The translations under genes were made by a program, and so were the position numbers. A DNA stretch of 24,000 nt, taken from positions 37,751-61,750 of the forward strand of contig NZ_DAMCHJ010000012.1 in the NCBI RefSeq assembly GCF_032104385.1, given 5' to 3'. The notes beneath the pieces were generated by a model. It was not told where the DNA came from and ran no database searches. It was given only the letters and a program-made list of their open reading frames with translations. Each line of letters opens with the position of its first letter. Position 1 is the stretch's first letter. Positions 6,972 through 22,956 of the stretch are shown here, piece after piece. This DNA is from Tissierella sp. (GTDB lineage Bacteria; Bacillota; Clostridia; Tissierellales; Tissierellaceae).

Positions 6972-7682
6972 TTAATAATTCACATAATTCTCAACACTTT
7001 TAAACATTTTTTCATATTGTATCTCTGTGATTATTATCCTTTGACCTTCAATCTTTAATAAATTTTGTTCTTCTAATTTCTTTATTACACGATTTACAGT
7101 TTTAACGGCATATCCTGTTTCCTCAGCAATTTGTTGCCTTGTAATTCTTAAGATGCAAATATGGTCTTTAGCATATAACTGATAATACTGTATAAGATAT
7201 ATTTTTATTCGGTCTATTGATTTAATCATAAGAAACATTCGCATATGTTTTTGTTCATCTAAAACACGCTTTAAAATAATATTGGTTCTTCTATAGAGGT
7301 ATTGGGAATTATTTTTTAAAAATTCTTGATAAATATCTACTGGAATATTTAAAAACACACATTGCGACTCTGTAATCAGAGTGGCTCTAAACTTAGTAAT
7401 ATCAGCCAAAGCCTCCATTTCTCCAAATACTTCTGGAGCAGAAAACTTCTTAAAGGTGTAGGTTTCTCCCGTGGAATATTCTTCCAAAGCTTTAACTTGT
7501 CCCGATAAAAGTATCCATATTGTATTTATGACTTCATCAACAGCAACAAATCTCACTCCAGCCTCTACTGTAACAACCTGACAGTGATCCAAAGTTTCAT
7601 AAAAATCCTTCTGGAATAATTCTTCAAAATCACTAATTCTTGTATTGGAAATTTCTGAAATTTCTCTTAAAATACTGTGCAT
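6972..7682 (-). CDS. Crp/Fnr-family transcriptional regulator
   Basis: N-terminal cNMP-binding-like beta-barrel region (FGEMEAL) and C-terminal HTH (TRQQIAEETGYAVKTVNRVIKKLEE). Start at MHSIL (ATG 7682) is preceded by GAGGTG. Confidence 0.7.
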   Translation of the reverse strand: MHSILREISEISNTRISDFEELFQKDFYETLDHCQVVTVEAGVRFVAVDEVINTIWILLSGQVKALEEYSTGETYTFKKFSAPEVFGEMEALADITKFRATLITESQCVFLNIPVDIYQEFLKNNSQYLYRRTNIILKRVLDEQKHMRMFLMIKSIDRIKIYLIQYYQLYAKDHICILRITRQQIAEETGYAVKTVNRVIKKLEEQNLLKIEGQRIIITEIQYEKMFKSVENYVNY

Positions 7683-7719
7683 AATCTTACACCTCAACAA
7701 CAATATAACATAATAGTCT

Positions 7720-9186: not shown

Positions 9187-9203
9187 TTTACCTACTCCCA
9201 CTC
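9187..9203. repeat. Island-distal att core (17-bp direct repeat tttacctactcccactc)
   Basis: Perfect 17/17 identity with 22940-22956. The bases flanking each copy differ on both sides. Confidence 0.75.
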
Positions 9204-9337
9204 TTCATTTTATATTATTAGATATATGCTAAAGCTTTTAATTTAGTCATTATTTAACAGTTCGTTCTCGTTCTGTTTGTATAATTTAACTATATTTGAA
9301 ACTTATTTTACCCGTCCCAGTACCAGTTCCGGTTTAA

Positions 9338-10522
9338 TTACCAGGGGAATGTTAGGAAAAATCTTATTATAAGTGCGAACAAAAATATAAAGAATACTAA
9401 CATTTGAGGTTTACCTATTTCTGGTTTCTTTATTATTGCTTCAAATTTGCTACTACCCTCTAAATCTGTTTTAAATAATATTTTATCCTCATATATTTCC
9501 TTAATTACCTTGTATGTTTCTCCTAATGACTTAATTTCTAACCTATAAGCATTAAAAATAAAAATTAAAGCAACAATAAACATTAACAAAACTATGCCTT
9601 TCTTAGCTCCGTCTGAAAATAAAAGATATGGGATTATATCTTCTCCTTTATAGTTAACTATTATATTGAAAAGCTCCAATCCTAAATAACCTAGCCAAGC
9701 AAAAAATGTAAGATTTAGTGTCCTAAGAGAGGTGTTTTCATTCTTTGATAAAATTAGAAAATCATCTTTTAGTTGGTTTAATTGTTCAAAATATTCATTG
9801 GTTTTTTGGGAAACTATTCGTTTGTAAGCTAATTTACTATCCTCAAGCACTCCTTTAACATCTTTAATGTCATTTTTATTAATTATCACTTGCCTGACAA
9901 CTTGAAGTTTTACATTATATGATTCCTCATATTCTTCTTCATTAAATATCCAATCATAAATAGGATACAAATGTAATGGCTTAGAATCAATAATATTTAG
10001 TTTAACCTTGTAATTTTTATCTTCAATTCTAAATTCTGTTTCTACTTCTTCTGCGTTATAATTACTTGCAGTTGCAAGAGCAAAAAGAATCAATATATCT
10101 ATAAATAGAGTGGATTTAAAATTGTTGTTATCGAGAGCCTCATTCAGTACATTTACAGAAATTGGAAAATTTCTAATATCAGCATCTATCTTGTTTTCTT
10201 TTATTATTTTTTCATAAACCTTCTTATCTTTCGCTGTAACTTCAATACCTCGAAAATCTTCAATGTTAGATATGTAAACTTGACTTAATTTATTATAATC
10301 CTTTTGTGAATATTTTGTAATTATCGTGGACAAATTTTTAGACTGATCAATGAATTTATCTTCTAATATATAGTAAGACTCTTGATTTTCTAATGTGTAT
10401 TCTGAACCGTCTTTCCGTAAAGGTATTTCTCTATTTTTTAAAATATGGATTAATGAAGCATTCTCATCAATTTTAGAATCTATTTTTAGCGAAGTATTCT
10501 TCCAGGATAATAAATCATTCAC
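9338..10522 (-). CDS. Hypothetical membrane-anchored protein (soluble N-terminal ~270 aa, about 3 C-terminal TM helices)
   Basis: 394 aa. Hydrophobic stretches: LTFFAWLGYLGLELFNIIV, IVLLMFIVALIFIFNAY and MLVFFIFLFALIIRFFLTF. Its ATG overlaps the stop of the upstream gene (10515-10522). I recognise no family. Confidence 0.6.
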   Translation of the reverse strand: MNDLLSWKNTSLKIDSKIDENASLIHILKNREIPLRKDGSEYTLENQESYYILEDKFIDQSKNLSTIITKYSQKDYNKLSQVYISNIEDFRGIEVTAKDKKVYEKIIKENKIDADIRNFPISVNVLNEALDNNNFKSTLFIDILILFALATASNYNAEEVETEFRIEDKNYKVKLNIIDSKPLHLYPIYDWIFNEEEYEESYNVKLQVVRQVIINKNDIKDVKGVLEDSKLAYKRIVSQKTNEYFEQLNQLKDDFLILSKNENTSLRTLNLTFFAWLGYLGLELFNIIVNYKGEDIIPYLLFSDGAKKGIVLLMFIVALIFIFNAYRLEIKSLGETYKVIKEIYEDKILFKTDLEGSSKFEAIIKKPEIGKPQMLVFFIFLFALIIRFFLTFPW

Positions 10523-11474
10523 CCCCTAGTTCCTCCTTTACTTTAGCTAAATAGTCATCATCTATCATAATCGTAATTTTTTTATTTTTTTCATCAAAAT
10601 TTAATTCATTATCTCTAAGACTCTCCAAGTAGTTTTTAGTTGTAATTGTTATTTCATCGGAAGTTGAGATTATCCTCTTATATTTATTATTTAGTGCTTT
10701 CTCAGAAATATCAAAATCCGCATCTATACCTTCTGATTCAGCTGAGAATAGTTCATCTTCTTTTTGCAATTCAATTAATCCACTGCTATTCAACTCATTG
10801 AATAAATCAGATTTGTCAAATTTTTTATTATCAAACATATAGTATTCTGTAAACCTTTTTATTTCATCGTAATTTTCTTTTTTAATAATTTCTCGTTGAA
10901 AAAATCTATCTTCCGATATAAGATTTACTACCTCTTTTGTACTATCTTCAGATGTTCGTTTTCTTGTAAGTCCTAAAAATTTTTGATACCAATACTTAGC
11001 AGCAGTCCTATTTTTATCAATTATTTTAATATCACTATAATCCCCTTTAAAAGTACAAACTTTAAAATAATCTTTTTCCTTCCCTAATTCGCTCTTAATT
11101 TCATAGGTATCTTTATCAATCACTGTTAATTTTTCTAATTTCATGATAGTAATGAAATTATTATTAACTTTTATAAATAACAACCCTTCTCTTATAGTAC
11201 TATTTCTTGTGTAATCTGCTTTACATTCTGCTTTTAACAAATCTTCTGCTATTCTCTTATAATCAAATTCCACCTTATCTAATGACTCATTAAAATAATG
11301 AATTGGACTATCAAGGTAAGTTTCTGACTCTAAATCTAAAAAACAGTTTGTTATTAAATGGGTTTCTTCGCTTAATTCATCAAATATCTTTAATATATTT
11401 TTTTGCTGGTTACCGTCAATCGAATTTGATTTCACTTCTGTACTAATATCAAATACTTTTACAACCAGTGACAT
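10515..11474 (-). CDS. Hypothetical protein with distant resemblance to NdpA/YejK nucleoid-associated protein family
   Basis: 319 aa with a strong RBS (AGGGAGGAAGGG). The by-eye layout resembles the NA37 family: REGLLFIKV..ITIMKLEKL block, KYWYQKFLGL block, and a C-terminal ITIMIDDDYLAKVKEEL block. The assignment is tentative. Confidence 0.55.
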   Translation of the reverse strand: MSLVVKVFDISTEVKSNSIDGNQQKNILKIFDELSEETHLITNCFLDLESETYLDSPIHYFNESLDKVEFDYKRIAEDLLKAECKADYTRNSTIREGLLFIKVNNNFITIMKLEKLTVIDKDTYEIKSELGKEKDYFKVCTFKGDYSDIKIIDKNRTAAKYWYQKFLGLTRKRTSEDSTKEVVNLISEDRFFQREIIKKENYDEIKRFTEYYMFDNKKFDKSDLFNELNSSGLIELQKEDELFSAESEGIDADFDISEKALNNKYKRIISTSDEITITTKNYLESLRDNELNFDEKNKKITIMIDDDYLAKVKEELGGE

Positions 11475-11528
11475 AAATCCCTTCCTCCCTTAATTAGATT
11501 TTTATAGCCACTCACATCTTGATTCCAG

Positions 11529-12137
11529 TTATCGTACTAAAATCAAATCTTGACTTTCAATAAACTCACTATAATAATCTATTATTTGGTACATTGATTT
11601 TATCTTCTCAATTGCAATATATTTATTCATAAAATCATAATCAGGTTTACCATCTTTAGCTGGTAACATAATTTTTTCTCTTTTTATTCTTCTATCGTTA
11701 ATTTCTCTATTAAAAGAATATTTAGTTTCTAAGTTTCTAAGTTTCGTAGCTAAAAATAGATATATGTTTTCTGTAGCTTTATCTATCTTTAAAGCAGTTA
11801 TATGGTCACTTCCTATAAATTCATACTTATGGTAAAAAGTAGAACCTACGGAACCACTATTAGCTATAGTTAAACAATCGTTAAAAACTCTAACTTTATC
11901 AGTATTGCCTATAAAATTATCTAGTCCATTATTAAGTCCTGTTGAAGAAATATATGGAATATCCCCTTCAAACTGTTCTCTTTTTGTAAGTCGTCTTCCT
12001 CTCTGTATTAGATTAAATACATCATCAAGATAAAATTCTTTCCAATCTATACTTTCTAAATTAAATTCTAATCCCTTACAAATGGCTAACTTATATATAT
12101 ATATATATATAGTCAAGCACTTTAGAGGCTGTTTCAT
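11529..12137 (-). CDS. Single-TRD HsdS-like specificity cassette (half S subunit), lacking a convincing independent start
   Basis: Contains the third copy of the TRD signature (DIPYISSTGLNNGLDNF, NSGSVGSTFYHKYEF) and a C-terminal conserved helix (IIDYYSEFIE). Its only ATG lies 47 nt inside the upstream S gene, without a good RBS. The frame is +1 relative to the upstream S gene across a (TA)10 tract. Confidence 0.55.
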   Translation of the reverse strand: MKQPLKCLTIYIYIYKLAICKGLEFNLESIDWKEFYLDDVFNLIQRGRRLTKREQFEGDIPYISSTGLNNGLDNFIGNTDKVRVFNDCLTIANSGSVGSTFYHKYEFIGSDHITALKIDKATENIYLFLATKLRNLETKYSFNREINDRRIKREKIMLPAKDGKPDYDFMNKYIAIEKIKSMYQIIDYYSEFIESQDLILVR

Positions 12138-13203
12138 GCTCTAAATTTTTAATAAAATCTGTCATGTATTTCCAGTTCGGATTACCATTTTCTTCTGATG
12201 GAAGAAGAATCTTTGCATTTTTTAGTCTATTTCCATTAAAATGTATTCCATAAGAGGCTTTTACTTTTGACACCTTTTCTATAGCACTACATAAAAATTT
12301 ACTATTATGATTATTTAAGTTATCATTATAAAGCAAATTTATTGAAGAGCCACTAAATCCTCTACCTACAAAGTCATAATCATGATAGAAAGTTGTCCCG
12401 CCTACAGGATCAACTGATATGGCACTTCTTTTACTTATATCTGATTCTATAGCATTTACAAAGTTGGTAATTCCATTATTTTCTGAAGATGTAGTTACAT
12501 AGGGAATATTGCCATTCTCATAATTATTGATTGGTTTGCCCTCTACTCTTTTTACATCAAAAATCTCATCAATTTGAAACAGATTCCATTCTACTTCTTT
12601 TAAATCTAATAATATACTAGCTTCATCAATAAGTTTTTGTTCATAATAATCTATAACTTTTTCAGCTTGAGATTTTAATTCTTGCTTGGCATAATCCTCC
12701 ATGAATCTCCAATTAGGCTCATTATTATCATTAATAGGGAGTAGGATTTTTGACCTTCTCATTCTTTTAGGACGCCATTTTTTACCATATTCATAAGATT
12801 TACCTGTTTTCTCTAGCATTACAATTAGAAAAAAGGCTATATACTTATTAAGTTCATAGTTTTTAAGATATACAGGAGTGATATCATGACTGCAAGTAAA
12901 TAAATCCTCTTGATAAAATGCATGACCCACCGACCCGTTGTTTGTTATTGCTATACAATTTCCAGAAAACAATCTTTCATCAATATTGTTATTTGTTTTA
13001 TTTCCAACCTTATCCCATGTTAGTATTGTATCTTTGGAATAAAATTCTGATACACCGTTGTTATAAGCAGTGGCACTAAGGAATGGGATCTTGCCATTCT
13101 TTTCTGCGGGAGGCTTTTTATTATAATATCCATCTACTATTTCAAAAATATCAATCATATTAAATTCTTTCCACCCAACGCTATTTAACTTTAACCTATT
13201 CAT
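12091..13203 (-). CDS. HsdS-like specificity subunit with two target-recognition domains (BcgI-B-like)
   Basis: Two paralogous TRDs (KIPFLSATAYNNGVSEF / NIPYVTTSSENNGITNF; NNGSVGHAFYQ / VGGTTFYHDYDF) are separated by a helical spacer. Start at MNRLKL (ATG 13203) overlaps the stop of the upstream gene (ATGAATAG). Confidence 0.8.
   Translation of the reverse strand: MNRLKLNSVGWKEFNMIDIFEIVDGYYNKKPPAEKNGKIPFLSATAYNNGVSEFYSKDTILTWDKVGNKTNNNIDERLFSGNCIAITNNGSVGHAFYQEDLFTCSHDITPVYLKNYELNKYIAFFLIVMLEKTGKSYEYGKKWRPKRMRRSKILLPINDNNEPNWRFMEDYAKQELKSQAEKVIDYYEQKLIDEASILLDLKEVEWNLFQIDEIFDVKRVEGKPINNYENGNIPYVTTSSENNGITNFVNAIESDISKRSAISVDPVGGTTFYHDYDFVGRGFSGSSINLLYNDNLNNHNSKFLCSAIEKVSKVKASYGIHFNGNRLKNAKILLPSEENGNPNWKYMTDFIKNLEHETASKVLDYIYIYI
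12092..12111. repeat. (TA)10 dinucleotide simple-sequence repeat at the junction of two S-subunit reading frames
   Basis: tatatatatatatatatata. It encodes YIYIYI-stop in the upstream S frame and IYIYIY in the downstream frame. Confidence 0.95.
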
Positions 13204-15172
13204 AACCTTCACCATCTTCAGCAGCATAAGGTTGATTAATATCTTGAATTATATCTTTCTCAATTTGGTCCTCCAGTCCAAATAAATATCCTCTACCATG
13301 AGTAATCATATTTACTTCAAAGGTTAGATAATCAGCTATAGTATTTTTAAAATCTTCTTCTGATGGTATCTCATCATTAAAATAATAGAATGAGTGTAGC
13401 CATTCATCGTCTGCTTCTATAGTAGTCTCTACACAAAATTTAGTTTGAGACTCTATTCTATTAAACCATACATCTAGTAGATGTTGCTTTTTATCCTTTG
13501 CTGAAGTAGTTTCTATTAGTCCAATATGCTTTGAAACTTTATAACCATCCTCTTCAAAGTTTATAAACTTACACAGTTTATCTTCTCTATGAGGTACTCC
13601 GGATGTAAAAATTGCTATACAGGGATTGACACCAACCCCATAAAAAGTATCTTTGTTTAAGGTTATAACTCCTTCCAAAGTATGTTTTTTTAATATATTT
13701 TCTTTTATTTCTTTTTCCACTTTTGTTTTGCCTGTTACAGAAGATTGAGGGATAATTACTGCAGCTCTTCCTCCTTCTACAAGTGAGTCTAAAAGATGTT
13801 CAGTAAAAGCTATCTCATATAAATCTTTATTCCTGGAAGATCCCTGAGAATATGGAGGGTTCATCATACCAACTGTACATTGTTTTAATTGAAGTTTATT
13901 AGGATTTTCTTTTAGAAAATCATGATTCTCTAGATTGCTTTTGCCGTCTCCACGGATAATCATATTAGTCGTCGCTATGGTGAACATGTATGATTGAATT
14001 TCATTTCCAAATAATCTATTCTTTCTGATATCTTCAATTTTTCTTTCATCATCTGTCTGCTTTATCATATGATGCATGGCAGAAATCAAAAATCCTGCCG
14101 TACCACAACACGGGTCTAGTACACGGTCATTTGGCTTAATGTCTACCAATTCACAAAATAAATCTGTGATGTGTCTTGGTGTTAAAACTATCCCCAATGT
14201 CTGTCCATCCCCGCCAGAATAGCTCATAAATTCCCCATAAAATCTGCCTAAATAATCTTCTGAACTTGATATTCTATTTATTGTTTTAAATATATTATTA
14301 TTTATAAATTCTGTATAATGTTTTATTGGAGTTTTTCCAAGTGTTGAATCAATTTCATTTATTTTTGTTGTATCCTTTATTACTAAAAACTGACTCAAAA
14401 GTTTGTCCCTCTTAACTTCAGGTGATACATTTACCCTTTTTAAATGATCATCTATAGCTTTATATATCTTATTACCATCTGTATTTATTTGATCTCCATT
14501 TAAAGTCTTTTCTACTGATATATTATTACGTTCGAATTCTCTTAGTGCTAAAAGTATTCCTGATACTATTAAAGGCTTATCTTTATCTTGTATTGACCCA
14601 TAGTTTCTTAAATCTTCATGAAGTTCTGCAGCATCTTTAAGTATTTCTTTAGTTTCTTTTTCTTCACTAGTTGGCTCTTTTAAGACCTCTCTTAGATAAT
14701 ATTCTTCTATATTTTCTTCATTAAATAAAATGAAACTTTCTATCTCATCTAGTTCAGTATAATTTTCTCTTTCATCTATAAATAAAGGAGTTATCCTATG
14801 TCTTTTTTCATTTCCTGATACCCCAATCGCTATTATTTTTTTATAAGAAGTATTTTTTGCAAGATGTTTTCCATAAAATAATGCTCCATTAACTGCATAG
14901 TTAATGTTTGAATCTACTGTTTCACATATTAGATTTTTATCATTTCTTTTCTCGTGAAAATATGTAGTAGCCTTATTTTCTATTACGATTAAAAAGTCTT
15001 TTACTACTCCTACATATTCAGGAAATCCAACTTTCCCAGTACCTCTTTTAGATGATGTTTGTAATGCTTTATGTACTTCTTTTATATTAGAACCTTGGGC
15101 TGAAAGTTTTATATCTGCTTCCTTTAACAAATCATAAACCCAAAGATCTGTATTTGCTTCTAACTTTGCCAT
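13196..15172 (-). CDS. Fused PD-(D/E)xK endonuclease / gamma-class N6-adenine DNA methyltransferase (BcgI-A-like type IIB R-M catalytic subunit)
   Basis: 658 aa. N-terminus has P51-E52-X12-E65-N-K67 (GFPEYVGVVKDFLIVIENK). SAM motif I VLDPCCGTAGFL lies at about residue 350, roughly 150 aa later than in a plain HsdM. Motif IV is MNPPYS. No hsdR gene lies within the island. Confidence 0.7.
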   Translation of the reverse strand: MAKLEANTDLWVYDLLKEADIKLSAQGSNIKEVHKALQTSSKRGTGKVGFPEYVGVVKDFLIVIENKATTYFHEKRNDKNLICETVDSNINYAVNGALFYGKHLAKNTSYKKIIAIGVSGNEKRHRITPLFIDERENYTELDEIESFILFNEENIEEYYLREVLKEPTSEEKETKEILKDAAELHEDLRNYGSIQDKDKPLIVSGILLALREFERNNISVEKTLNGDQINTDGNKIYKAIDDHLKRVNVSPEVKRDKLLSQFLVIKDTTKINEIDSTLGKTPIKHYTEFINNNIFKTINRISSSEDYLGRFYGEFMSYSGGDGQTLGIVLTPRHITDLFCELVDIKPNDRVLDPCCGTAGFLISAMHHMIKQTDDERKIEDIRKNRLFGNEIQSYMFTIATTNMIIRGDGKSNLENHDFLKENPNKLQLKQCTVGMMNPPYSQGSSRNKDLYEIAFTEHLLDSLVEGGRAAVIIPQSSVTGKTKVEKEIKENILKKHTLEGVITLNKDTFYGVGVNPCIAIFTSGVPHREDKLCKFINFEEDGYKVSKHIGLIETTSAKDKKQHLLDVWFNRIESQTKFCVETTIEADDEWLHSFYYFNDEIPSEEDFKNTIADYLTFEVNMITHGRGYLFGLEDQIEKDIIQDINQPYAAEDGEGYE

Positions 15173-15269
15173 TGCTTATACCTCTCTTTTTTTATTCTAT
15201 ACTTTAATTGAATTTCTGTCTTCTCTTCATTATTTCTTTAATATTACATCTTAAATATATTTAATTTAT

Positions 15270-15485
15270 CTATTTTACATATTCCATAATATCTTCTATA
15301 TCACAGCCTAAAACATAGCAAATTTTTGCTATGGTAGCTAAATCTAATCTCTTAACTTTATTGTTGCAATATGAATTGAGCTGAGTTCTCTGTAAATTGG
15401 CTTCCTTTTCTAATTTGTTTTTACTTATGTTTTTCTCTTCTAAAACCTGATCAATTTTAAAAATCACTCTTCCAAAATCTTGCAT
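15270..15485 (-). CDS. Small XRE/Cro-type HTH regulator, candidate R-M controller (C) protein
   Basis: 71 aa. HTH region ISKNKLEKEANLQRTQLNSYCNNK. RBS AAAGGAGA. It lies immediately upstream of the R-M catalytic gene, in the same orientation. Confidence 0.65.
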   Translation of the reverse strand: MQDFGRVIFKIDQVLEEKNISKNKLEKEANLQRTQLNSYCNNKVKRLDLATIAKICYVLGCDIEDIMEYVK

Positions 15486-15592
15486 CTTTTTATCTCCTTT
15501 TGATATTTAAAGATAAGTTTATTTCTCCCTATTTCAAAATCATTATTAAGACAATTATATCAGACTTGGTTTCTTTTTACACCTGTAAGAAG

Positions 15593-15937
15593 TTATTTTA
15601 TATATTTTCTTACCAAGATATTTTGTATATTCATTATCTCTTTCGATATATTATCATTCTCTTTTTTTAAATCCTCAATATCTTCTCTGTAAATTATTCC
15701 TGTAGTATTTACTCTTTTCGCAATCTGATTAATGTTGCCAGAGTTCTTCCCTATAAGAGTTTGTAGTCTTCTAAAAACATTCATATCTATTACAAATATA
15801 GGCGCCTCCATAACGCATTTCCTTATAAAGTGTCCCATGGATTTTGACTTGCTAAGTTCAAGTTTTTTCTTGAAAATTTCTTTTTCTTCTTTAGTCAACT
15901 TGATTTCAATTCTTTCATTCCTATATCTATTAGTCAT
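15593..15937 (-). CDS. MobC-family mobilisation (relaxosome accessory) protein, RHH-type
   Basis: 114 aa. N-terminal RIEIKLTKEEKEIFKKK RHH-like strand-helix, and a GNINQIAKRVN motif characteristic of the MobC family (NxNQIAr). RBS AAAGGAGAAG. Confidence 0.65.
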   Translation of the reverse strand: MTNRYRNERIEIKLTKEEKEIFKKKLELSKSKSMGHFIRKCVMEAPIFVIDMNVFRRLQTLIGKNSGNINQIAKRVNTTGIIYREDIEDLKKENDNISKEIMNIQNILVRKYIK

Positions 15938-15974
15938 ATTCTTCTCCTTTACTTTTATATTTTTAACTAGGGTC

Positions 15975-16086
15975 TTAGGGGTTTCCCCTAAATCTTTCTG
16001 ATAAGAACAAGTAGAAAATTGAGTAGAATAAAGCGAACCTTGAGGTCAGCTTTATTCTATTTTCTCGTAAGTGTCCGTACACTTAC
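15975..16086. promoter_or_regulatory. Cluster of three inverted repeats; candidate oriT/ori structural elements or terminator
   Basis: IR1 is ttagggg-ttt-cccctaa (15975-15991). IR2 is tagaataaagc-N14-gctttattcta (16024-16059). IR3 is gtaagtgt-ccgt-acacttac (16067-16086). All lie in the 375-bp noncoding gap between the helicase and MobC-like genes. Confidence 0.4.
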
Positions 16087-16295
16087 TGTGCTTGCTACTA
16101 AGGTTTTTAAATTTAAGCTAGAAATTCCCATTACTATACTTTTTTATGAAATATGCACAGAAAGAAAGTGTAACTGTAACCTACTATTTCAAAAGTCCTC
16201 AAATAAGGCATTGATTCTTATCTTGATTCCTACAAGCCTTGATATTACTAGACTTCCATTTCTACCAGCCTGATTCTAAAGGTTTTGAAAACTTG

Positions 16296-16325
16296 GTTAC
16301 AAGTTACAAGGTTACAAAATTACAA
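16296..16325. repeat. Four tandem (G/A)TTACAA heptamers (iteron-like) spanning the helicase stop codon
   Basis: gttacaa at 16296, 16303 and 16311, and attacaa at 16319 (spacing 7, 8, 8). Nearby, three TTGAT(T/A) repeats occur at 16211, 16223 and 16239. Confidence 0.6.
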
Positions 16326-17775
16326 TTTTATTATCTTTTGCATTCTCTCCTGTGTCCATTTCTATTTGCTCTGGTTCTTGCCATTCTTTTGGTAAATCAT
16401 TATTATTAACTTCCATAAAGTCATTTTCTTTCTTTTCTCCTCTTTCATAATAAAGTTTTACTGGTATAGATATTCCACTAGGAGCAATACGTTTAGTTTT
16501 TGATGAACGAACTGCCTTCCACTCCGGAAAATAATTATCCATGATTTCAGAAAAAGATTTTGATTTAATCCCATAGCCTTGCATAGATAATTCCTTAAAG
16601 CAAGTTATATTTGGTTCTTGTGTTTTTGCTTTATACTCTTCTAAAAAATACCTAATATCTTCAACATCTGGATTTAGATACTTAAACTTTTCTTGTTCTT
16701 GGTAGAGATCCTCAAGGAGGTTTTTTGGTATGGTCCAGGAATGTTTCTTCTCTTTATAAAGTTTATATCCATAGGCAAGGGCCTGGTTAAAATCTTCTCG
16801 AATAGAATCTAAATATTCTTTTTCTGATTCTTTACCTTGAAAATCCTTGTCGAGATAAATGGCCTTCTTCCTGTTTTCCTTGTGACATTCTATAGGTAAA
16901 TACCTTCTCTCTCCTGTGTGGTCATTTAAAAAAGTTCTTTCATTTAATGTTCCAATTAAAATACAAGTCCTAGGAACATCGGTTGAAAATTTCTCATAAG
17001 GGATTCTTATCCTATCGCTTAATTTAGATAAAAATGATTTTGCTTCATTGGCAGACTTTGCATTTCTTAAGGCTACAAATTCTTCAATTTCTACTACTGT
17101 CTTGCCCATTAGGTTCATTACTGCATCTTTACCTTGAATATTTTCTATAGTGCAAAACCAATCATCTTTTATGGCCAAGTATCTAGCAAAGGTAGATTTT
17201 CCTATTCCCTGACCACCTACTAAAACCATCATTTCATCAAACTTAGATCCTGGTTCAAAGACTCTTTTAACTAAACCTAAAATCATATGCTCCATAATCC
17301 AGGCATTTAATTCTGTATCATCAGCTCCTAGATAAATTGGTAGGAGTTTAGCTATTGCATTTGTGCCTCCCTTCCAAGTTAAGCTTTTTAGATATTGTTT
17401 TGGTGGACTTATTTCATACTGATGGGCAACAAAGCGAACTGCATCCCACATTTTATTGGCATTATAATTAAGTCCAAAATGCTTTTCTATTTCAAGTCCT
17501 AACCTGTTATTTAATGAATCATCCCATAGTCTTATTTGATTTGGCTTTATGCCTTTTTCCCCTATAATCTTACCTTGAAATTTAATCTCATTGGTAAATT
17601 TATCATAGAAGATTTGTCCTTCATATATTTTCTTAGCCTTACAATATTTTTGGTTAAGGAGTACTGTGACAATATTTCCTGTAATTTGCTTTACATTACC
17701 TTTTACTGTCTTCTGTAAATCGATTAAAGAATAGGACTGGTCTATTTCAGAAAAAGCTAGTTTAAACTCTTTCAT
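16312..17775 (-). CDS. VirE / D5-like P-loop replicative helicase family protein
   Basis: Walker A GGQGIGKST in the middle of a ~490-aa protein, immediately downstream of and overlapping a Prim-Pol gene. The preferred start is MKEFKL (ATG 17775); the ORF-track start at 17838 lies deep inside the upstream gene. Confidence 0.75.
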   Translation of the reverse strand: MKEFKLAFSEIDQSYSLIDLQKTVKGNVKQITGNIVTVLLNQKYCKAKKIYEGQIFYDKFTNEIKFQGKIIGEKGIKPNQIRLWDDSLNNRLGLEIEKHFGLNYNANKMWDAVRFVAHQYEISPPKQYLKSLTWKGGTNAIAKLLPIYLGADDTELNAWIMEHMILGLVKRVFEPGSKFDEMMVLVGGQGIGKSTFARYLAIKDDWFCTIENIQGKDAVMNLMGKTVVEIEEFVALRNAKSANEAKSFLSKLSDRIRIPYEKFSTDVPRTCILIGTLNERTFLNDHTGERRYLPIECHKENRKKAIYLDKDFQGKESEKEYLDSIREDFNQALAYGYKLYKEKKHSWTIPKNLLEDLYQEQEKFKYLNPDVEDIRYFLEEYKAKTQEPNITCFKELSMQGYGIKSKSFSEIMDNYFPEWKAVRSSKTKRIAPSGISIPVKLYYERGEKKENDFMEVNNNDLPKEWQEPEQIEMDTGENAKDNKIVIL

Positions 17776-18703
17776 AGGCCCTGGTCCTTTTCTTGTATTG
17801 AAAATGTCTACTCCAGTCAAAGGCCACAAATTTTCCAAGGCCCAAGACTTTTTCTATGGTCTTTTCTACATAGTCAAGATACTTTCTATCATCCCTTCTT
17901 TTCTTATTGCTGCCTAGGCGATTTAAAGGAGTCATTAAAAAGAGTTCTTTCATTAAGTTAGGATTTCCATCTGTATAGTTTCTAGCAAGTACTAGAAAAG
18001 TAAAGTCATCCCTGCTATGGTCACCTGTTAGACTAGCTCCTGATATAAGCATATTTGCCTTTCTATTAGTTCTTTCCAGGGTGGTTAGTATTTCCTCTAG
18101 GGTTAAGTCATCAAGTCTAGAAAACTTGTTTAAAGGCTCATACTTGTATTCTCTAATTTGTTTTAGGGTAGATGCTTTCTCCTGTGTCCATTTCTTATAA
18201 AGTATTTTTAATTCTCCTTCTTTTTCTAAAAGCTTATTATTTCTGGGGAAGAAGGATCCATCTCCTATATTTCCTGTAAGAGCTATATATCTATTTTTCT
18301 TGTATATCTCAATTCCTCTACTTGATAAATTAATATTATCTGGAATAGTCCCTTGGACAAAAATATGGATTCCCTTGCCTGATTGGGATAACTCCATATA
18401 TGTCCCTGTAAAACTCTCTATAATTTCTTTTGCCATAGGAGTTAGCTTACCACCTTGAATTGCATGGTCTAGGTCTATACAGATAACACTATCTTCCTCA
18501 ACTAAAACAAAGCCTAGAAGTTTATTCTTAGTCTTAGCTTCATTGAAATCTATACATCGTTCTGGATGATTCCAATCATTAGCTTTTCCATCAATTAGAG
18601 AAAAGGGGAGCTTGGCTACTTTGCCATTTAACTCTTCCTTTCTCCAACCTACAAATCTTTTCAAATTTTTCATTTCTTCTGGTAGATATTTATATTTTTC
18701 CAT
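17762..18703 (-). CDS. Bifunctional DNA primase/polymerase (Prim-Pol, AEP superfamily) N-terminal domain protein
   Basis: FVGWR..KLPF.., catalytic ICIDLDH (DxD) and SGKGIHIF motifs. RBS AAGGAGGT. Confidence 0.75.
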   Translation of the reverse strand: MEKYKYLPEEMKNLKRFVGWRKEELNGKVAKLPFSLIDGKANDWNHPERCIDFNEAKTKNKLLGFVLVEEDSVICIDLDHAIQGGKLTPMAKEIIESFTGTYMELSQSGKGIHIFVQGTIPDNINLSSRGIEIYKKNRYIALTGNIGDGSFFPRNNKLLEKEGELKILYKKWTQEKASTLKQIREYKYEPLNKFSRLDDLTLEEILTTLERTNRKANMLISGASLTGDHSRDDFTFLVLARNYTDGNPNLMKELFLMTPLNRLGSNKKRRDDRKYLDYVEKTIEKVLGLGKFVAFDWSRHFQYKKRTRAYERV

Positions 18704-18798
18704 TCTTTTTACCTCCTTATGCTGGTCAGAATAGAACCCATATGGTAAAATGAATTTGGTAGAAACATTCCATACGGGGTGTGCCTTTGGCCTTTGTG

Positions 18799-19119
18799 CT
18801 AAAGGCTTTTTTCTTTTTTGATTTCATAGTAAATTTCTATTAAGAATCTTAAAATCTCCTGGTCTTCCTCTTCTAATCTTCCATATTTCTTTATAACTTT
18901 TGCCAATCTAAATATTTCTAGAGCAAATTTATCTTCAAGTCTATAATCTGCTTTAATGGACACAGGAGGAGATGTTAATGACCTTATAATATAATCTTGC
19001 TTAGTAAGACCACTTATTTCTACCTTCCTATCTAATAACTCAGCTTCTTCCTCTGTTGCCCTAAAAGAAATTATCTTATTTCTCTTTCTTTTAACTTGTT
19101 TTTTTATTTCCCTACTCAT
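18799..19119 (-). CDS. Ribbon-helix-helix (MobC N-terminal-like) DNA-binding protein
   Basis: IISFRATEEEAELLDRKVEISGLTKQDYIIRSL is an RHH pattern. The MSREIKK start (ATG 19119) overlaps the integrase stop (ATGAGTAG). Confidence 0.5.
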   Translation of the reverse strand: MSREIKKQVKRKRNKIISFRATEEEAELLDRKVEISGLTKQDYIIRSLTSPPVSIKADYRLEDKFALEIFRLAKVIKKYGRLEEEDQEILRFLIEIYYEIKKEKSL

Positions 19120-20218
19120 ATTCATCCTCCAATAATTTTTTCCATTCATCTTCTAAGCTTTCTTTTCTTAAATTAGATAAGGAAATGGCCATATCATTTT
19201 GCTTGCTTGGGAATAAGTGAGCATACCTATAGGTTATATCTATAGATTCATGGCCTAGTCTATCTGCTATGGCTATTGCTGAATAACCTAATTCAATTAA
19301 CAAAGATACATGGGAATGTCTTAGATCATGTACTCTAATTCTCTTAACTCCAGCTTTTGTACTTCCCCTAGTCATTTCATGATGTAGATAGGACTTGGTA
19401 ATTGGAAATAATAATTGATCCCTCTTTAGCTTGTATATTCCAGCCATATATTTATCCATTTCTTCTGCCAAAAAGTCTGGCATAACAACTGTCCTGATAC
19501 TTTTCTTAGTCTTAGGTTCAGTTATAATATTTTCTCCACCTATTCTTTGTAGAGATTGATTTACTCTAATAGTATTGTTAGTAAAATCAAATTTCTCCTT
19601 TGTTAAAGCTAGTAATTCCCCTGTTCTTAATCCACACCAATATAAAATTTGAAAAGAATGGAAGGATAAGGGTTTATCCTTAACTTCTTCTATAAATTTG
19701 TCATACTCTTTTTTAGTCCAAAACTTCATTTCAGAAGCTTCCTTTTCTCCAATAGATCCAACATCCCTCGCTACATTGGATTTTAGATTATAATATTTAC
19801 AAGCATGATTTAGGATACTACTTAATTGTGCATGTATTGTTCTTAGATAGGTTTGAGAATATTTTTGGCCCTTACTATTCTCTTCTTTCATTAATTCATT
19901 CTGCCATTTTACTATTGCTGTTTTAGATATTTCATTAACTTTAAGACCTCCTATATAGGGAATAACCTTTGTGATTATTATTTGCTCTTTGGTATTCCAA
20001 GTGTTTTCCCTTAATCTAGGCCTCATATCTTTTTCGTATACTTGAAAAAAATCCTTAAATGTCATATCAAGATTTCCAGATTGTTCTCTTAAGAAATCTT
20101 CCTCCCATTTTAAAGCTTCTTTTTTTTGTTTTGAATCCTCTCTTCTTTTTGTTAATTTTCTCACCACGCCAATTGCTATAGGTAAATTTGGCAAACCATG
20201 TGCCATTTCCACTTTCAT
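19112..20218 (-). CDS. int: Tyrosine-type site-specific integrase
   Basis: C-terminal catalytic signature: GLRTGELLAL (Arg), HDLRHSHVSLL (His-x-x-Arg) and GHESIDITYRYAHL (His and the Tyr nucleophile). N-terminal SAM-like core-binding domain. Confidence 0.9.
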   Translation of the reverse strand: MKVEMAHGLPNLPIAIGVVRKLTKRREDSKQKKEALKWEEDFLREQSGNLDMTFKDFFQVYEKDMRPRLRENTWNTKEQIIITKVIPYIGGLKVNEISKTAIVKWQNELMKEENSKGQKYSQTYLRTIHAQLSSILNHACKYYNLKSNVARDVGSIGEKEASEMKFWTKKEYDKFIEEVKDKPLSFHSFQILYWCGLRTGELLALTKEKFDFTNNTIRVNQSLQRIGGENIITEPKTKKSIRTVVMPDFLAEEMDKYMAGIYKLKRDQLLFPITKSYLHHEMTRGSTKAGVKRIRVHDLRHSHVSLLIELGYSAIAIADRLGHESIDITYRYAHLFPSKQNDMAISLSNLRKESLEDEWKKLLEDEYE

Positions 20219-20236
20219 CTCTATAGGCTCCCACTC

Positions 20237-20425
20237 CTAGGCCTCCTTTCTTACTTGATAACAGTACTTGTCCAAGAAATATTGTCTATTGATTTTTCCC
20301 CTTTGAACCCTGTAGCCTAGTTCAACTAGTTCTTGATTCATTTCATTAATTACTTGATAGGCTGTAGTTCTACTAACTTCTAAAAAATCCTGTACTTCCT
20401 TTGCATTCATAAAAATCTTTTCCAT
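20237..20425 (-). CDS. Excisionase-like / MerR-type small HTH DNA-binding protein
   Basis: MNAKEVQDFLEVSRTTAYQVINEM is an HTH_17-type motif. The gene lies directly upstream of int. Start at MEKIF is preceded by AAGGGGGAG. Confidence 0.6.
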   Translation of the reverse strand: MEKIFMNAKEVQDFLEVSRTTAYQVINEMNQELVELGYRVQRGKINRQYFLDKYCYQVRKEA

Positions 20426-20476
20426 ACTTATCTCCCCCTTGGAATTCAACAACACACTTTCGTGCTATTAGGTTAT

Positions 20477-20505
20477 ATAATATCAGCACATTTCCGTGTT
20501 GTCAA
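20477..20505 (-). promoter_or_regulatory. Sigma-A-type promoter for the xis-int-replication operon
   Basis: On the minus strand, TTGACA (20505-20500), a 17-nt spacer, then TATTAT (20482-20477), about 50 nt upstream of the excisionase-like start. It is flanked and overlapped by two CAC-N6-GTG 12-mers (20453-20464 and 20487-20498, 10/12 identical). Confidence 0.5.
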
Positions 20506-20580
20506 GATTGATTTTAAATTATTTTTATTTATCTTTCCTATTACAAGGGATTTCATTGAATTTATAATCGTTCACTTCTG

Positions 20581-20609
20581 TTGCTATTAATGATATCTTG
20601 TGATAAAAT
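20581..20609 (+). promoter_or_regulatory. Sigma-A-type promoter for the XRE repressor gene
   Basis: TTGCTA, a 17-nt spacer ending in TGa (extended -10), then TAAAAT. It lies 30 nt upstream of the ATG at 20640. Confidence 0.4.
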
Positions 20610-20639
20610 AAATTATAATACTAGCGAAAGGGGTTTCCA

Positions 20640-21068
20640 ATGATTTCAGGTGAAAAGCTAAAAAAGTTAAGATTACTTAGAGAATTGACACAGAAAGAAT
20701 TAGCAATAAAATCAGGGCTTACAGATTCTGCTATAAGAAATTATGAATTAGGTTATAGATCTCCCAATAAAGAGCAATTAATAAAGATAGCAGAGGCTTT
20801 AGCTTGTGATGTTTCTTCCTTAATTGACCATACTCCCATTTCTAATTTTGAATTTATGCAAATTCTATTTGATTATGAAGAAGATTTAAAAATAAGACCA
20901 CTAGTAGAAGGTTCTACAATAGGGCTGCTTTCACACGATATGAATTTAAATGATTTTCTAGTAGAATGGGATGAAATGAGAAAAAAACACTATAACGGTG
21001 AAATTACAGATGAAGAGTTTGAGGATTGGAAGTTGTCATATCCTAAGAAGTCTAGATTTAACAAATAA
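20640..21068 (+). CDS. XRE/cI-type HTH repressor (island master-repressor candidate)
   Basis: N-terminal LKKLRLLRELTQKELAIKSGLTDSAIRNYELG HTH_3 motif plus a C-terminal extension. Divergent from the xis-int operon. RBS GAAAGGGG. Confidence 0.8.
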   Translation: MISGEKLKKLRLLRELTQKELAIKSGLTDSAIRNYELGYRSPNKEQLIKIAEALACDVSSLIDHTPISNFEFMQILFDYEEDLKIRPLVEGSTIGLLSHDMNLNDFLVEWDEMRKKHYNGEITDEEFEDWKLSYPKKSRFNK

Positions 21069-21100
21069 TTCTTATATTATAAATCTATAGCTTGATTTTT

Positions 21101-21123
21101 AACCTATCGATTTCGATAGGGTT
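21101..21123. repeat. Near-perfect palindrome with TCGATTTCGA core (copy 1)
   Basis: aacctatcga-tt-tcgatagggtt. Confidence 0.7.
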
Positions 21124-21180
21124 AATATATATATAATAAACCGTGTTGGATTGGACACGGTTAAATATGATTTAATTCTA

Positions 21181-21202
21181 AACTGGTCGATTTCGAACAG
21201 TT
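21181..21202. repeat. 22-bp palindrome with TCGATTTCGA core (copy 2)
   Basis: aactggtcgatttcgaacagtt, with 10 of 11 arm positions paired. The core lies exactly 80 bp from the copy-1 core. Confidence 0.7.
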
Positions 21203-21260
21203 ATAATACAAATCATTTAACAATTACCTGCTATTAAGTAGAGAATTTAATATTAGCTGT

Positions 21261-21305
21261 ATCAAAAAAGCCACCATAGAATCTTCTTCAGATCTTTATG
21301 GTGGC
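21261..21305 (-). terminator. Rho-independent terminator (paralogue of the one at 22775-22814)
   Basis: Stem gccaccata/tatggtggc, followed on the minus strand by TTTTTTGAT. It lies downstream of the 21406-21693 gene. Confidence 0.6.
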
Positions 21306-21405
21306 TCTATTTGCAGTTCCCTAGAATTGAGCCTATCCATATTATTAAAGTCTTCTAAGGAAATATCCATAATGTTTCAATTATTATAAATTCCTCCCTA
21401 TTGAC

Positions 21406-21693
21406 TCAAATAGAGCGTATCCACTCATCGTTAAAAATATCTCGGAATTCTTCCATTACATCTTCAAATCGTGTTAACCCTTCCACTTTCAATTTTTTTG
21501 AGAAAGCTATTGAGTTGTCTTGTGCCAGTGCAGACCAAAAATACTGTACCATTTTCTCTGCAGTAAGACGACTCATTCTCCCAATAGTTAAATTTACTCC
21601 ACTCTTAACATTAGCTGGTACCGTTTCTGATGATAAAATAGGATCAAATATCCTCTCATGTAAAAATCTCATTAATTCCTCTTCTTTAGTCAT
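21406..21693 (-). CDS. Hypothetical protein (95 aa)
   Basis: Strong RBS AGGAGGTGA. Tightly packed behind the upstream gene. The overlapping + strand ORF 21401-21721 has no RBS. Confidence 0.6.
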   Translation of the reverse strand: MTKEEELMRFLHERIFDPILSSETVPANVKSGVNLTIGRMSRLTAEKMVQYFWSALAQDNSIAFSKKLKVEGLTRFEDVMEEFRDIFNDEWIRSI

Positions 21694-21706
21694 AATATTT
21701 CACCTC

Positions 21707-22006
21707 CTATACCCAACTTAAAGATTTTGGCGTTATTGGTGAAATGCCTTTTGCAATTCTTAAATGCTCAATCCATGTTTTACAGCCTACCATATCTGCC
21801 CTGTCCAAATAGTAACCAACATTTGGCCTTGAGCTAATTGATTTCCTATGACTTCTTAAAACACGAATAGCCTCTCTTATTTGATTTTTTGTAGCTCCCA
21901 TTGGTACTATAATTTCTACAATATCATGAAACTTGATTGCATTGACTCTTCCTAAATGATTATTCATCACTTCAGCAACATATAAGTTTACATCTCTTTG
22001 TTTCAT
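21707..22006 (-). CDS. Hypothetical protein (99 aa), possible winged-helix DNA-binding
   Basis: RBS GAGGAGG. NQIREAIRVLRSHRKSISSRPNVGYYL resembles HTH_11/wHTH recognition helix-wing patterns. Confidence 0.5.
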   Translation of the reverse strand: MKQRDVNLYVAEVMNNHLGRVNAIKFHDIVEIIVPMGATKNQIREAIRVLRSHRKSISSRPNVGYYLDRADMVGCKTWIEHLRIAKGISPITPKSLSWV

Positions 22007-22077
22007 CTTCTAAACCTCCTCAATTTTTTATTTTAATCTTCCATATATTCTAATCAATCACAGTTAATGATTATACT

Positions 22078-22479
22078 TTAAAAAGATAATTTTGCTTCGG
22101 GAGTATATTCATTTCCTACAATATCAAGAGGAATACGATCAAGCCAATCTGCTCCCCATTTATCTCGTGTTTCCTCAACAACAAGTTTTCCTGTCTCCGT
22201 TAATACTCTTGCTTGTCGATCTGACGAGGCTGCCAATGATGGCTTATTTCCCGAATAATAACCTGCTGTTGAACTAGGACTTTTCCCGTATTTTCTTGCA
22301 AATTTAGATATTTCCTCTGGTGTAACAGTCCCTCCTTGTCTATAAATCTCTTCAAGTATGGCGATTTTTCTTACCTCACCAATAGTTGTGGTAATACTTG
22401 CATTTTTAGATTCTAGTCGATTAATAAGTGCTGATACCTTTGCCTCAATCTCTTTTAATTCACTTAAAATTGTTTTCAT
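22078..22479 (-). CDS. Hypothetical protein (133 aa), N-terminal coiled coil plus possible wHTH
   Basis: Start at MKTILSEL (ATG 22479) is preceded by AAAGGAG. The ORF-track extension to 22521 lacks an RBS. Confidence 0.55.
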   Translation of the reverse strand: MKTILSELKEIEAKVSALINRLESKNASITTTIGEVRKIAILEEIYRQGGTVTPEEISKFARKYGKSPSSTAGYYSGNKPSLAASSDRQARVLTETGKLVVEETRDKWGADWLDRIPLDIVGNEYTPEAKLSF

Positions 22480-22774
22480 ATTTCTATCTCCTTTCAAATC
22501 AAAGTCCATTACATAATTCATTCCTTGATATTGTTCATGATATCAAAAATATAAGTTTCTGTCAATCATTATATTTTTCATTGAATGATTCTTTTAATGG
22601 TTCTGTTCTATATTTCAATAATACTTAATGACCTATAACTCAATTCATCTTGTATTTTATTCCTTGGCTTTTTATTTTTCTTATACTACATTTCCTAATT
22701 TTACAATCTTCTTGGATTTCATAAATTATCTAATAATTGCTTGCTGTTAAACAGAAAACAATAAACACACACAC

Positions 22775-22814
22775 CAAAAAACACCATAGATTCTTATTCA
22801 GATCTCTATGGTGT
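22775..22814 (-). terminator. Rho-independent terminator downstream of guaA (island-borne)
   Basis: 10-bp stem acaccataga/tctatggtgt, followed on the minus strand by TTTTTG. It lies 130 nt after the guaA stop. Confidence 0.6.
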
Positions 22815-22939
22815 TTCTATTTGTAAGCCAGTCGGCATTATTTATTAAGTTATTCTAAAAAACTTTTTTACCCAATTTCGTTCCAGTCAAGGATTTTTAA
22901 CCTCTACAAGTATTGGTTTTATCAGTTTTTCTTTTTATT

Positions 22940-22956
22940 TTTACCTACTCCCACTC
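22940..22956. repeat. guaA-proximal att core (17-bp direct repeat)
   Basis: tttacctactcccactc, identical to 9187-9203. It covers guaA codons E-W-E plus the TAG stop and 5 nt beyond. Confidence 0.75.

Follow-up and report, generated by a model that had tools for sequence, protein, structure and literature searches.

A (TA)n tract as a probable contingency switch for a third target-recognition domain in a restriction-modification system of the BcgI-like kind

Introduction

Can a run of TA dinucleotides decide how many target-recognition domains (TRDs) are built into the specificity subunit of a restriction-modification (R-M) system? This question is raised by a locus in Tissierella sp., where, in a 24-kb stretch of contig NZ_DAMCHJ010000012.1 (24,000 nt, hereafter the window), the gene for a specificity (S) subunit with two TRDs ends inside a perfect (TA)10 tract at 12092-12111, and a cassette for a third TRD lies just beyond it in another reading frame. 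An original prediction, made from this sequence and its open reading frames (ORFs), held that gain or loss of TA units could fuse or uncouple the third TRD and so switch the specificity of the system. We put at roughly 0.8 the probability that the (TA)n tract acts, by slipped-strand mispairing, as a contingency switch within the gene for S in a Type IIB system of the BcgI-like kind.

Results

The tract joins or separates two reading frames

The R-M and S genes around the tract all lie on the minus strand. Tandem Repeats Finder (TRF) reports the tract as the sole dinucleotide array in the window, and dinucleotide-preserving shuffles give 0.02 expected occurrences of a 16-nt TA pattern. The S ORF (378 aa) contains two Methylase_S domains (Pfam) and has the C-terminus ..KVLDYIYIYI; its stop codon, TAA at 12091-12093, is composed of the last TA of the tract and the A that follows. 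A second ORF on the same strand (11529..12137, 202 aa) contains one Methylase_S domain (Pfam), lies in the +1 frame, and is open across the tract. The first codon of the third TRD (TRD3) cassette is AAG (12090-12092), and the first base of this codon is the final A of the tract. TRF and the ORF translations thus bear out the original description of a two-TRD gene ending inside the repeat, with a one-TRD cassette open across it in the +1 frame.

We rebuilt the reading frames in silico with 6-14 TA units at the tract. With 8, 11, or 14 units, the two frames join into a fusion of 564-568 aa with the junction ..KVLDYIYIYIYKLAICKGLEFNLESIDWKEF.., or about 558-562 aa when counted from the MNRL start. 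As had been predicted, adding one unit or removing two joins the frames (n = 11 and n = 8); the predicted junction is reproduced exactly, and the predicted length of ~560 aa is closely approached. With 7, 10, or 13 units, the product is a two-TRD protein and the frame of an ATG at 12137 is open into TRD3. With 6, 9, or 12 units, the product is again a two-TRD protein, now with the end ..IS*, two codons past the tract, and TRD3 is closed off upstream. The window (n = 10) is in the two-TRD state. The unit length of this repeat is not a multiple of three and the repeat lies inside an ORF, as at contingency loci; its ten units exceed the five-unit threshold for dinucleotides of Atack et al, 2020 (PMC7383803).

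The three-TRD frame belongs to a protein family

Used as a query, the in-silico fusion retrieved dozens of homologues of 525-560 aa that cover 94-99% of its length. They come from Streptococcus gordonii, mitis, and infantis, Peptoniphilus, Porphyromonas, and Bacteroidales, and also from Finegoldia and Pasteurellaceae; the streptococcal proteins carry the name 'BcgI subunit beta'. The TRD3 cassette aligns with the third TRD of intact homologues of 540-560 aa, and the junction ..(D/E)YIYIY(K/R).. is kept among the homologues, with a varying number of YI. Shortened proteins of 355-380 aa were returned by the same search, and some homologues end within the repeat (..YIYI*, ..YIYIYIYI*, ..YIYIYIS*). 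Among the best 150 clusters (50% identity) of an exhaustive search of representatives, at least 13 measure 527-557 aa, and most of the others are ordinary S subunits of 335-385 aa. A search of plasmids gave only distant single-TRD matches. Judged from these sequences, the fused three-TRD frame is the native architecture of a protein family; the abundance of homologues with the same junction speaks for the earlier view that the fused frame is designed rather than accidental.

The TRD3 of the window (11532-12092) has 52% identity to the middle TRD of a streptococcal homologue (P0017) and 37% to the third TRD of that protein. Being closer to the middle than to the third TRD, it indicates that TRDs change position, and on such comparisons TRDs move between positions within the BcgI-like S family. 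Furuta and colleagues reportedly called a change of TRD position 'domain movement' in 2011.

The third TRD probably has no start of its own in the window

The best surviving alternative, though an unlikely one, is that TRD3 is made as a separate half-S protein, from the ATG at 12137 or by re-initiation past the S stop. Such a protein would dimerise and recognize a palindrome, and the role of the tract would be to adjust how tightly the two cistrons are coupled, not to fuse them. The frame of this ATG is indeed open into TRD3 at n = 7, 10, and 13, as described above. An ATG directly follows the tract in the loci of Gemella (L007) and Mogibacterium (L048), and that of Gemella overlaps the S stop (TAATG). 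Dimerising half-S proteins are also known, namely NgoAV and, in H. pylori, TRD3 alone (PMC3936762 for H. pylori).

The local signals in the window nevertheless count against it. The ATG at 12135-12137, made by His/Tyr-Glu codons of the S frame, is the only in-frame ATG upstream of the cassette. Its best duplex with the anti-Shine-Dalgarno sequence reaches -2.1 kcal/mol at a spacing of 0, compared to -8.1 to -11.6 kcal/mol at the starts of the restriction-methylase (RM) gene and of two neighboring ORFs of 319 and 394 aa. As it lacks a Shine-Dalgarno sequence, this ATG is probably not a working start, and the doubt first cast on it was well placed. Past the tract, neither the window nor most relatives have a start codon, and many intact fused proteins exist. 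We also rejected a promoter, terminator, or start specific to TRD3: promoter-like sites are no commoner than in shuffled sequences, a terminator is absent between S and TRD3, and the ATG has no Shine-Dalgarno sequence. A separate TRD3 half-subunit is therefore poorly supported in the window and more plausible in Gemella, and it could coexist with the contingency switch as a third state.

Tract length varies among relatives and the third TRD stays open

To sample related loci, we scanned one genome per species, which gave 80 loci, and added others from a metagenome scan and from look-ups of close relatives; a tract was counted when it had at least six TA units at the TRD2/TRD3 junction. There are 29 related loci with (TA)n at this junction, with n = 6-17: three loci with 6 units, three with 7, five with 8, six with 9, four with 10, two with 11, one each with 12 and 13, two with 14, and one each with 16 and 17. 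Their hosts include Streptococcus, Gemella, Finegoldia, Anaerococcus, Mogibacterium, Leptotrichiaceae, Acholeplasmataceae, Bacteroidales, and others. Seven of the 29 loci are in the fused frame, a share close to the third that random phase predicts; the other 22 are split, and both kinds of out-of-frame state are present. Every one of the 22 split loci keeps a TRD3 frame that runs for 169-199 codons without a stop, which at the local frequency of stop codons has a probability of about 5e-7 for each locus. The tails that follow the tract in out-of-frame products are zero to six residues long across loci, and zero or one in the window.

Where this island recurs with flanks that are 90-99% identical, it carries TA9 (L081), TA10 (the window, L082, and L083), TA13 (L098), and TA14 (L096 and L097). 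Close relatives thus show a frame-changing length polymorphism with intact downstream coding sequence, as contingency loci do. The original prediction had named two findings in relatives that would speak against it, an invariant tract length among strains and disabling mutations in the cassette; near-identical copies of the island turned out to differ in length, and the cassette frame is intact in the 22 split loci. With fused loci and both out-of-frame states represented among the 29, the proposed toggling of a third TRD is supported. As far as sequence comparison can tell, this pattern is the comparative signature of a contingency locus and argues against simple decay.

These comparisons bear on three further explanations. 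The first, that the true tract is in frame (TA11 or TA8) and the (TA)10 is an artefact of the consensus, is improbable. Dinucleotide tracts are error-prone in PCR-based short-read libraries, and the close relatives are metagenome assemblies. Out-of-frame lengths recur, however, in isolate genomes and in independent samples, and a span of 6-17 units far exceeds an error of one unit; the family-wide pattern and the switch mechanism would hold even if the copy in the window were miscounted.

The second explanation, slightly less probable again, is a fixed frameshift: the gene formerly encoded three TRDs, a slip in the tract has permanently cut off TRD3, which is decaying, and the tract does not act as a switch. 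As this view would have it, the window is out of frame, and so are 22 of the 29 related loci; the tract is also interrupted in a few relatives (..DYIYTYY.. in P0007, ..DYIHIYK.. in P0014), which shows that point mutation can lock such tracts. Decay is hard to reconcile with a TRD3 that is open in every split locus. Moreover, the TRD3 flank of the window and that of L098, which is split and has TA13, are 99% identical, and the TRD3 of a fused protein (P0004) differs from that of the window at few residues only. A pure tract is kept in hosts that are far apart, and in other branches the junction is taken up by repeats of non-homologous sequence.

The third and weakest, that ribosomal frameshifting or transcriptional slippage on the TA run yields both S forms from one allele so that tract length matters little, is highly improbable: a stop directly after a repetitive run would suit it, as would two products useful at the same time, but alternating TA is no known slippery heptamer or homopolymer slippage site (a stimulatory structure was not searched for), and polymorphism with all three frames is the signature of switching at the DNA level. 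Shuffling of S cassettes by inversion or recombination, as in SpnD39III, is not supported: TRD3 has the direct orientation, and the integrase is a gene of the island and not of the S locus.

Other repeats occupy the same junction

A general scan for simple sequence repeats (SSRs) in 42 three-TRD loci found other repeats at the homologous junction. Poly-G runs (G7-16) occur there in Porphyromonas, Bacteroidales, Glaesserella, Avibacterium, Haemophilus, and Helicobacter, and C10 in Fretibacterium (L010, position 7043). Moraxella spp. have pentanucleotide repeats, AGCCG x4 and CACAG x3 (L012, position 3788; L017, about nt 1103 of S). A junction repeat is absent in only three of the 42 loci (L042, L057, and L009, the longest tract in L009 having five units). 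The AAGAC repeat of Fusobacterium was found in 0 of 98 loci. The pentanucleotide repeats and C10 that stand in place of TA or G suggest that a frameshift-prone repeat was acquired repeatedly and independently at the TRD2/TRD3 junction.

In nine loci from Bacteroidales, Prevotella, Alistipes, and Lachnospiraceae (L022, L032, L034, L053, L061, L064, L069, L071, and L072), poly-G runs stand both at the TRD1/TRD2 junction (about nt 530-600) and at the TRD2/TRD3 junction (about nt 1065-1145); such genes could in principle give one-, two-, and three-TRD products. An uncultured Helicobacter sp. carries a four-TRD S gene (L018, 6001-8410) with G14, G16, and G14 at its three TRD junctions, in which TRDs 1-3 share one frame (652 aa) while the fourth forms a separate ORF (181 aa). 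Within the TRD3 coding sequence of the window (..KLRNLETK..), a perfect 8-nt repeat, AGTTTCTA x2.8, lies at 11724-11745; it is not conserved in the proteins of relatives and is probably due to chance.

Truncation at the tract is predicted to leave a complete S subunit

The AlphaFold2 (AF2) model of the 370-aa two-TRD product has a predicted local distance difference test score (pLDDT) of 88.4, with a CR1 helix (first conserved region) at residues 165-197 and a C-terminal helix at residues 344-369 that runs through YIYIYI. Foldseek aligned it with the entire solved S subunits 1ydx, 7bst_A, and 1yf2 at template-modelling (TM) scores of 0.50-0.55. A (V/I)(L/I)(D/E)YY motif is found at all three conserved helices (KVIDYYEQK, KVLDYIYIY, and QIIDYYSEF), and the tract sits on this motif, so that truncation there leaves a C-terminus of about natural length. 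On these models, the out-of-frame two-TRD product is predicted to be a complete canonical S subunit, not a crippled one.

For the fused state, we modelled a natural three-TRD homologue (P0001, 91% identical). The model has a pLDDT of 84.9, a predicted TM score (pTM) of 0.76, and three confident TRDs. Its CR2 helix is broken at the YI run, where residues 367-373 have a pLDDT below 50; the only other segment below 50 is the N-terminal tail, residues 1-9.

The partner is a nuclease-methylase fusion

By sequence reading, the RM protein has an N-terminal nuclease motif (P51-E52...E65-N66-K67) and the methylase motifs DPCCGTAGF and NPPY. The Pfam domain N6_Mtase covers residues 304-586 only, and the first ~300 residues form a conserved nuclease region. 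The PADLOC model REase_MTase_IIG (PDLC03602) matches RM with 554 bits over positions 5-631 of its 637, and Specificity_II (PDLC03591, 341 positions, 'Type II specificity subunit') matches the S proteins of the window. RM has 45% identity over 95% of the length to the RM of Staphylococcus phage phi-42 (Sau42I) and is similarly close to a protein annotated 'bcgIA protein' (45% identity, 95% of the length); a 72%-identical homologue bears the JGI name 'restriction enzyme bgcI subunit alpha', and the RM partner of the G[n] form in Glaesserella (Pasteurellaceae) is 73% identical. NCBIfam gave only MADS2, at 52 bits against a cut-off of 720, which we disregarded.

S overlaps the 3' end of RM in the window. 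Of the 80 related loci, 78 have a full-length RM homologue (42-76% identity) immediately upstream of S, and the remaining two begin at the S gene. We found no HsdR-like gene in the window or in the syntenic islands L096-L098, and no ResIII or helicase domain in any large ORF of the window. A classical Type I system was rejected, given the lack of HsdR, the conserved nuclease domain of the methylase, and the match to the Type IIG/IIB model. With nuclease and methyltransferase in one polypeptide, an adjacent separate S, full-length RM upstream of S, and no HsdR, the system is, by its gene content, a BcgI-like Type IIB R-M system made up of a restriction-methylase fusion and S. The original idea of an R-M specificity switch thus stands as regards the third-TRD toggle and needs two corrections: the system is BcgI-like Type IIB and not classical Type I, and the idea had already been published in 2020.

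In characterized relatives, BcgI has the stoichiometry A2B, and Glu53 of BcgI A lies within its PD..EXK motif (PMC3592470); BsaXI is (RM)2S with an N-terminal PD-(D/E)xK domain (PMC11997821). Sau42I of phage phi-42 is cited as BcgI-like in the reference list of one paper.

In streptococcal loci, a 339-aa ORF lies between RM and S and overlaps both (L002, 4998-6017, Streptococcus oralis); the same ORF gap is found in L001, L003, L005, L011, L015, L019, L029, L031, L033, and L073.

The system lies on an island inserted at guaA

A perfect 17-nt direct repeat, TTTACCTACTCCCACTC, at 9187-9203 and 22940-22956 bounds an island that carries the R-M system (Table 1). The reverse complement of the repeat, GAGTGGGAGTAG (..EWE*), is the 3' end of guaA, and Pfam places the C-terminus of GMP synthase in the ORF at 22945-23895. 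Besides the genes in Table 1, the island encodes NikA-like proteins, a helix-turn-helix protein, and two proteins without a known match. The order of modules is common to the window, L096, L097, and L098, and the cargo after S differs. The island is an integrative element and is probably mobilisable.

Table 1 Features of the R-M locus and its island in the window.
Feature	Position	Strand	Basis or remark
S gene, two TRDs as read	12091..13227	-	Methylase_S x2; PADLOC Specificity_II PDLC03591; AF2; Foldseek
Likely true S start, ATG (MNRLKL..)	13203	-	likely
TRD1	about 12712-13203	-	
CR1 helix	about 12613-12711	-	
TRD2	about 12175-12612	-	
C-terminal CR2 helix	about 12094-12174	-	
(TA)10 at TRD2/TRD3 junction	12092..12111		encodes YIYIYI of the CR2 helix
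Third TRD cassette (TRD3 + CR3 helix)	11529..12092	-	one Methylase_S domain; +1 frame vs S
CR3 helix	about 11532-11651	-	
RM subunit, 658 aa	13196..15172	-	PD-(D/E)xK-type nuclease region + gamma-class N6-adenine methyltransferase; BcgI A / Sau42I-like
Integrative island, about 13.8 kb, carries the R-M system	9187..22956	.	17-nt direct repeat
Tyrosine integrase	19112-20218		island gene
Primase-like gene	17762-18703		island gene
VapE	16312-17838		island gene
MobC/NikA-like gene	15593-15937		island gene

Directly after the S locus, two overlapping ORFs with strong Shine-Dalgarno sequences lie on the minus strand at 10515-11474 (319 aa) and 9338-10522 (394 aa). Neither has a match in Pfam, NCBIfam, or PADLOC. 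The pair is kept after S in L098 (319 and 392 aa); L096 and L097 have cargo of 675 and 106 aa instead. These ORFs may be cargo of the island and possibly form a further defence pair. At the 3' end of the VapE-like gene (16295-16325) there are four tandem copies of an 8-nt unit, GGTTACAA. They resemble iterons and could be an origin or a binding site for the replication module of the island. Outside the island, the minus-strand genes at 4731-6940 and 6972-7703 encode a YjjI-like glycyl-radical enzyme and a radical-SAM activase, accompanied by a Crp/Fnr-type regulator. PADLOC matches the activase and the regulator weakly to pVip and TIR models, which looks like cross-matching between general folds and does not point to defence genes.

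Discussion

We propose that slipped-strand mispairing would change the number of TA units and with it the reading frame of S. In frame (n = 8, 11, 14), a single protein with the order TRD1-CR1-TRD2-CR2-TRD3-CR3 would be made. At n = 7, 10, or 13, translation would end at the TAA formed by the end of the tract, and at n = 6, 9, or 12 two codons past it (..IS*). Both out-of-frame states would yield an ordinary two-TRD S whose last helix ends about where those of family members do. S would place the RM subunits, and the two S forms would then direct methylation and cleavage to different bipartite sites; because S directs a fused nuclease-methylase, the two forms should target different sites for both activities. 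By analogy with the Mannheimia system, it is probably TRD3, in place of TRD2, that pairs with TRD1 in the long protein. Switching would be reversible within a population, and both forms would assemble with RM.

Several points weigh against this proposal. The change in specificity is argued from other systems, and in a Type IIB enzyme such a change would expose the cell's own new, unmethylated sites to cutting. The fused model does not superpose globally on solved two-TRD S subunits (TM <= 0.32), and AF2 models of monomers leave the pairing of TRDs in the long form unassigned. TA14 is common to two samples and TA10 to two others, so the tract has not changed at every sampling. Tract lengths were taken from assemblies, where short-read counts can be one unit off. 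Finally, the length variation is seen between assemblies, and it is from this that we infer switching within a population.

We also considered a three-way switch, a tentative and on balance doubtful extension of the proposal, in which n = 0, 1, and 2 mod 3 would give the two-TRD S, the two-TRD S together with a TRD3 half-subunit that reads a palindrome, and the three-TRD S, respectively. At n = 2 mod 3, TRD3 may displace TRD2, or S may hold three RM subunits, an arrangement not yet seen. Since S steers a single polypeptide that holds both nuclease and methylase, every switch would expose unmethylated new sites to the nuclease of the cell itself. The three-way scheme may thus imply a safeguard not yet described, for example de novo methylation that outruns two-site cleavage.

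Returning to the two-form contingency switch, its kind has been known since 2020, and the window is a new example of it. Atack et al (2020, FASEB J 34:1038) described 'extended' three-TRD hsdS genes switched by SSRs in Mannheimia haemolytica (G[n]) and Fusobacterium nucleatum (AAGAC[n]) (PMC7383803). In M. haemolytica, the motif methylated is CAACN4GT for the two-TRD form and CAACN5TC for the three-TRD form (PMC7383803), which indicates that TRD3 replaces TRD2 there. The locus in the window shares the layout of these genes, with an SSR between TRD2 and TRD3, three TRDs when in frame, and a complete two-TRD S when out of frame; in the 'extended' hsdS genes, all three TRD positions are allelically variable. 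A member of the same protein family in Glaesserella, of the Pasteurellaceae (L026, G10), has the architecture of those genes. What differs in the window is the TA repeat, the setting in low-GC Firmicutes and relatives, and the island that targets guaA. Moreover, the extended genes were treated as Type I with an HsdM dimer, whereas the partner in the window is a BcgI-like fusion and there is no HsdR. What is new, then, is the TA repeat unit, the hosts, the BcgI-like RM fusion as partner, and the location on a mobile island. Full-text searches, whose scope did not extend to the supplementary tables of Atack et al, returned no further papers on extended S genes and none on a TA[n] version, and the literature on Moraxella and Actinobacillus R-M systems yielded nothing on extended S genes.

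Other known systems share parts of this design. BcgI, Sau42I (phage phi-42), and BsaXI, like the window, have an RM fusion of nuclease and N6-adenine methylase with a separate S directly downstream; unlike the window, these characterized systems have an S with two TRDs (337 aa in phi-42) and lack a third TRD under the control of a repeat. NgoAV of Neisseria gonorrhoeae reportedly has a poly-G run in hsdS, an inter-TRD repeat that, as proposed for the window, switches between longer and shorter S forms of different specificity; NgoAV is Type I and moves between two TRDs and one (a dimerising half-S), whereas the window would move between three and two. The three-TRD HsdS JHP1422 of H. pylori has two specificities (Krebes et al, 2014, PMC3936762), with TRD1 and TRD3 used for one site and TRD2 and TRD3, or TRD3 alone, for another (PMC3936762); unlike the S of the window, it is a Type I subunit with duplicated TRD2/3 and no repeat switch. 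The BcgI-like S genes HP1471/JHP1364 of H. pylori, which contain poly-G, were noted as prone to phase variation (PMC3936762); these systems, in contrast to what we propose for the window, were reported as inactive.

Atack et al posed the question of how widely extended S genes are distributed (PMC7383803). Our survey offers a partial answer: they occur in many genera, among Firmicutes, Bacteroidota, Pasteurellaceae, Moraxella, and Helicobacter. In those surveyed, the TRD2/TRD3 junction nearly always contains a repeat, and the partners are BcgI-like nuclease-methylase fusions and not Type I HsdM/HsdR. Two problems follow, namely how a three-TRD S assembles with RM and how a cell survives when an enzyme that both cuts and methylates changes specificity. 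Repeats stand at this junction in nearly all three-TRD genes of the family, and in some genes at all junctions; should the three-way scheme be true, BcgI-like systems would share, as a general principle of their design, a TRD number programmed by repeats. A switch that works as we propose would mean that the host of this mobile island has a restriction barrier and a methylation pattern subject to frequent change. The host could thereby evade phages that have already acquired its present methylation mark, and its gene expression could be altered as by a phasevarion.

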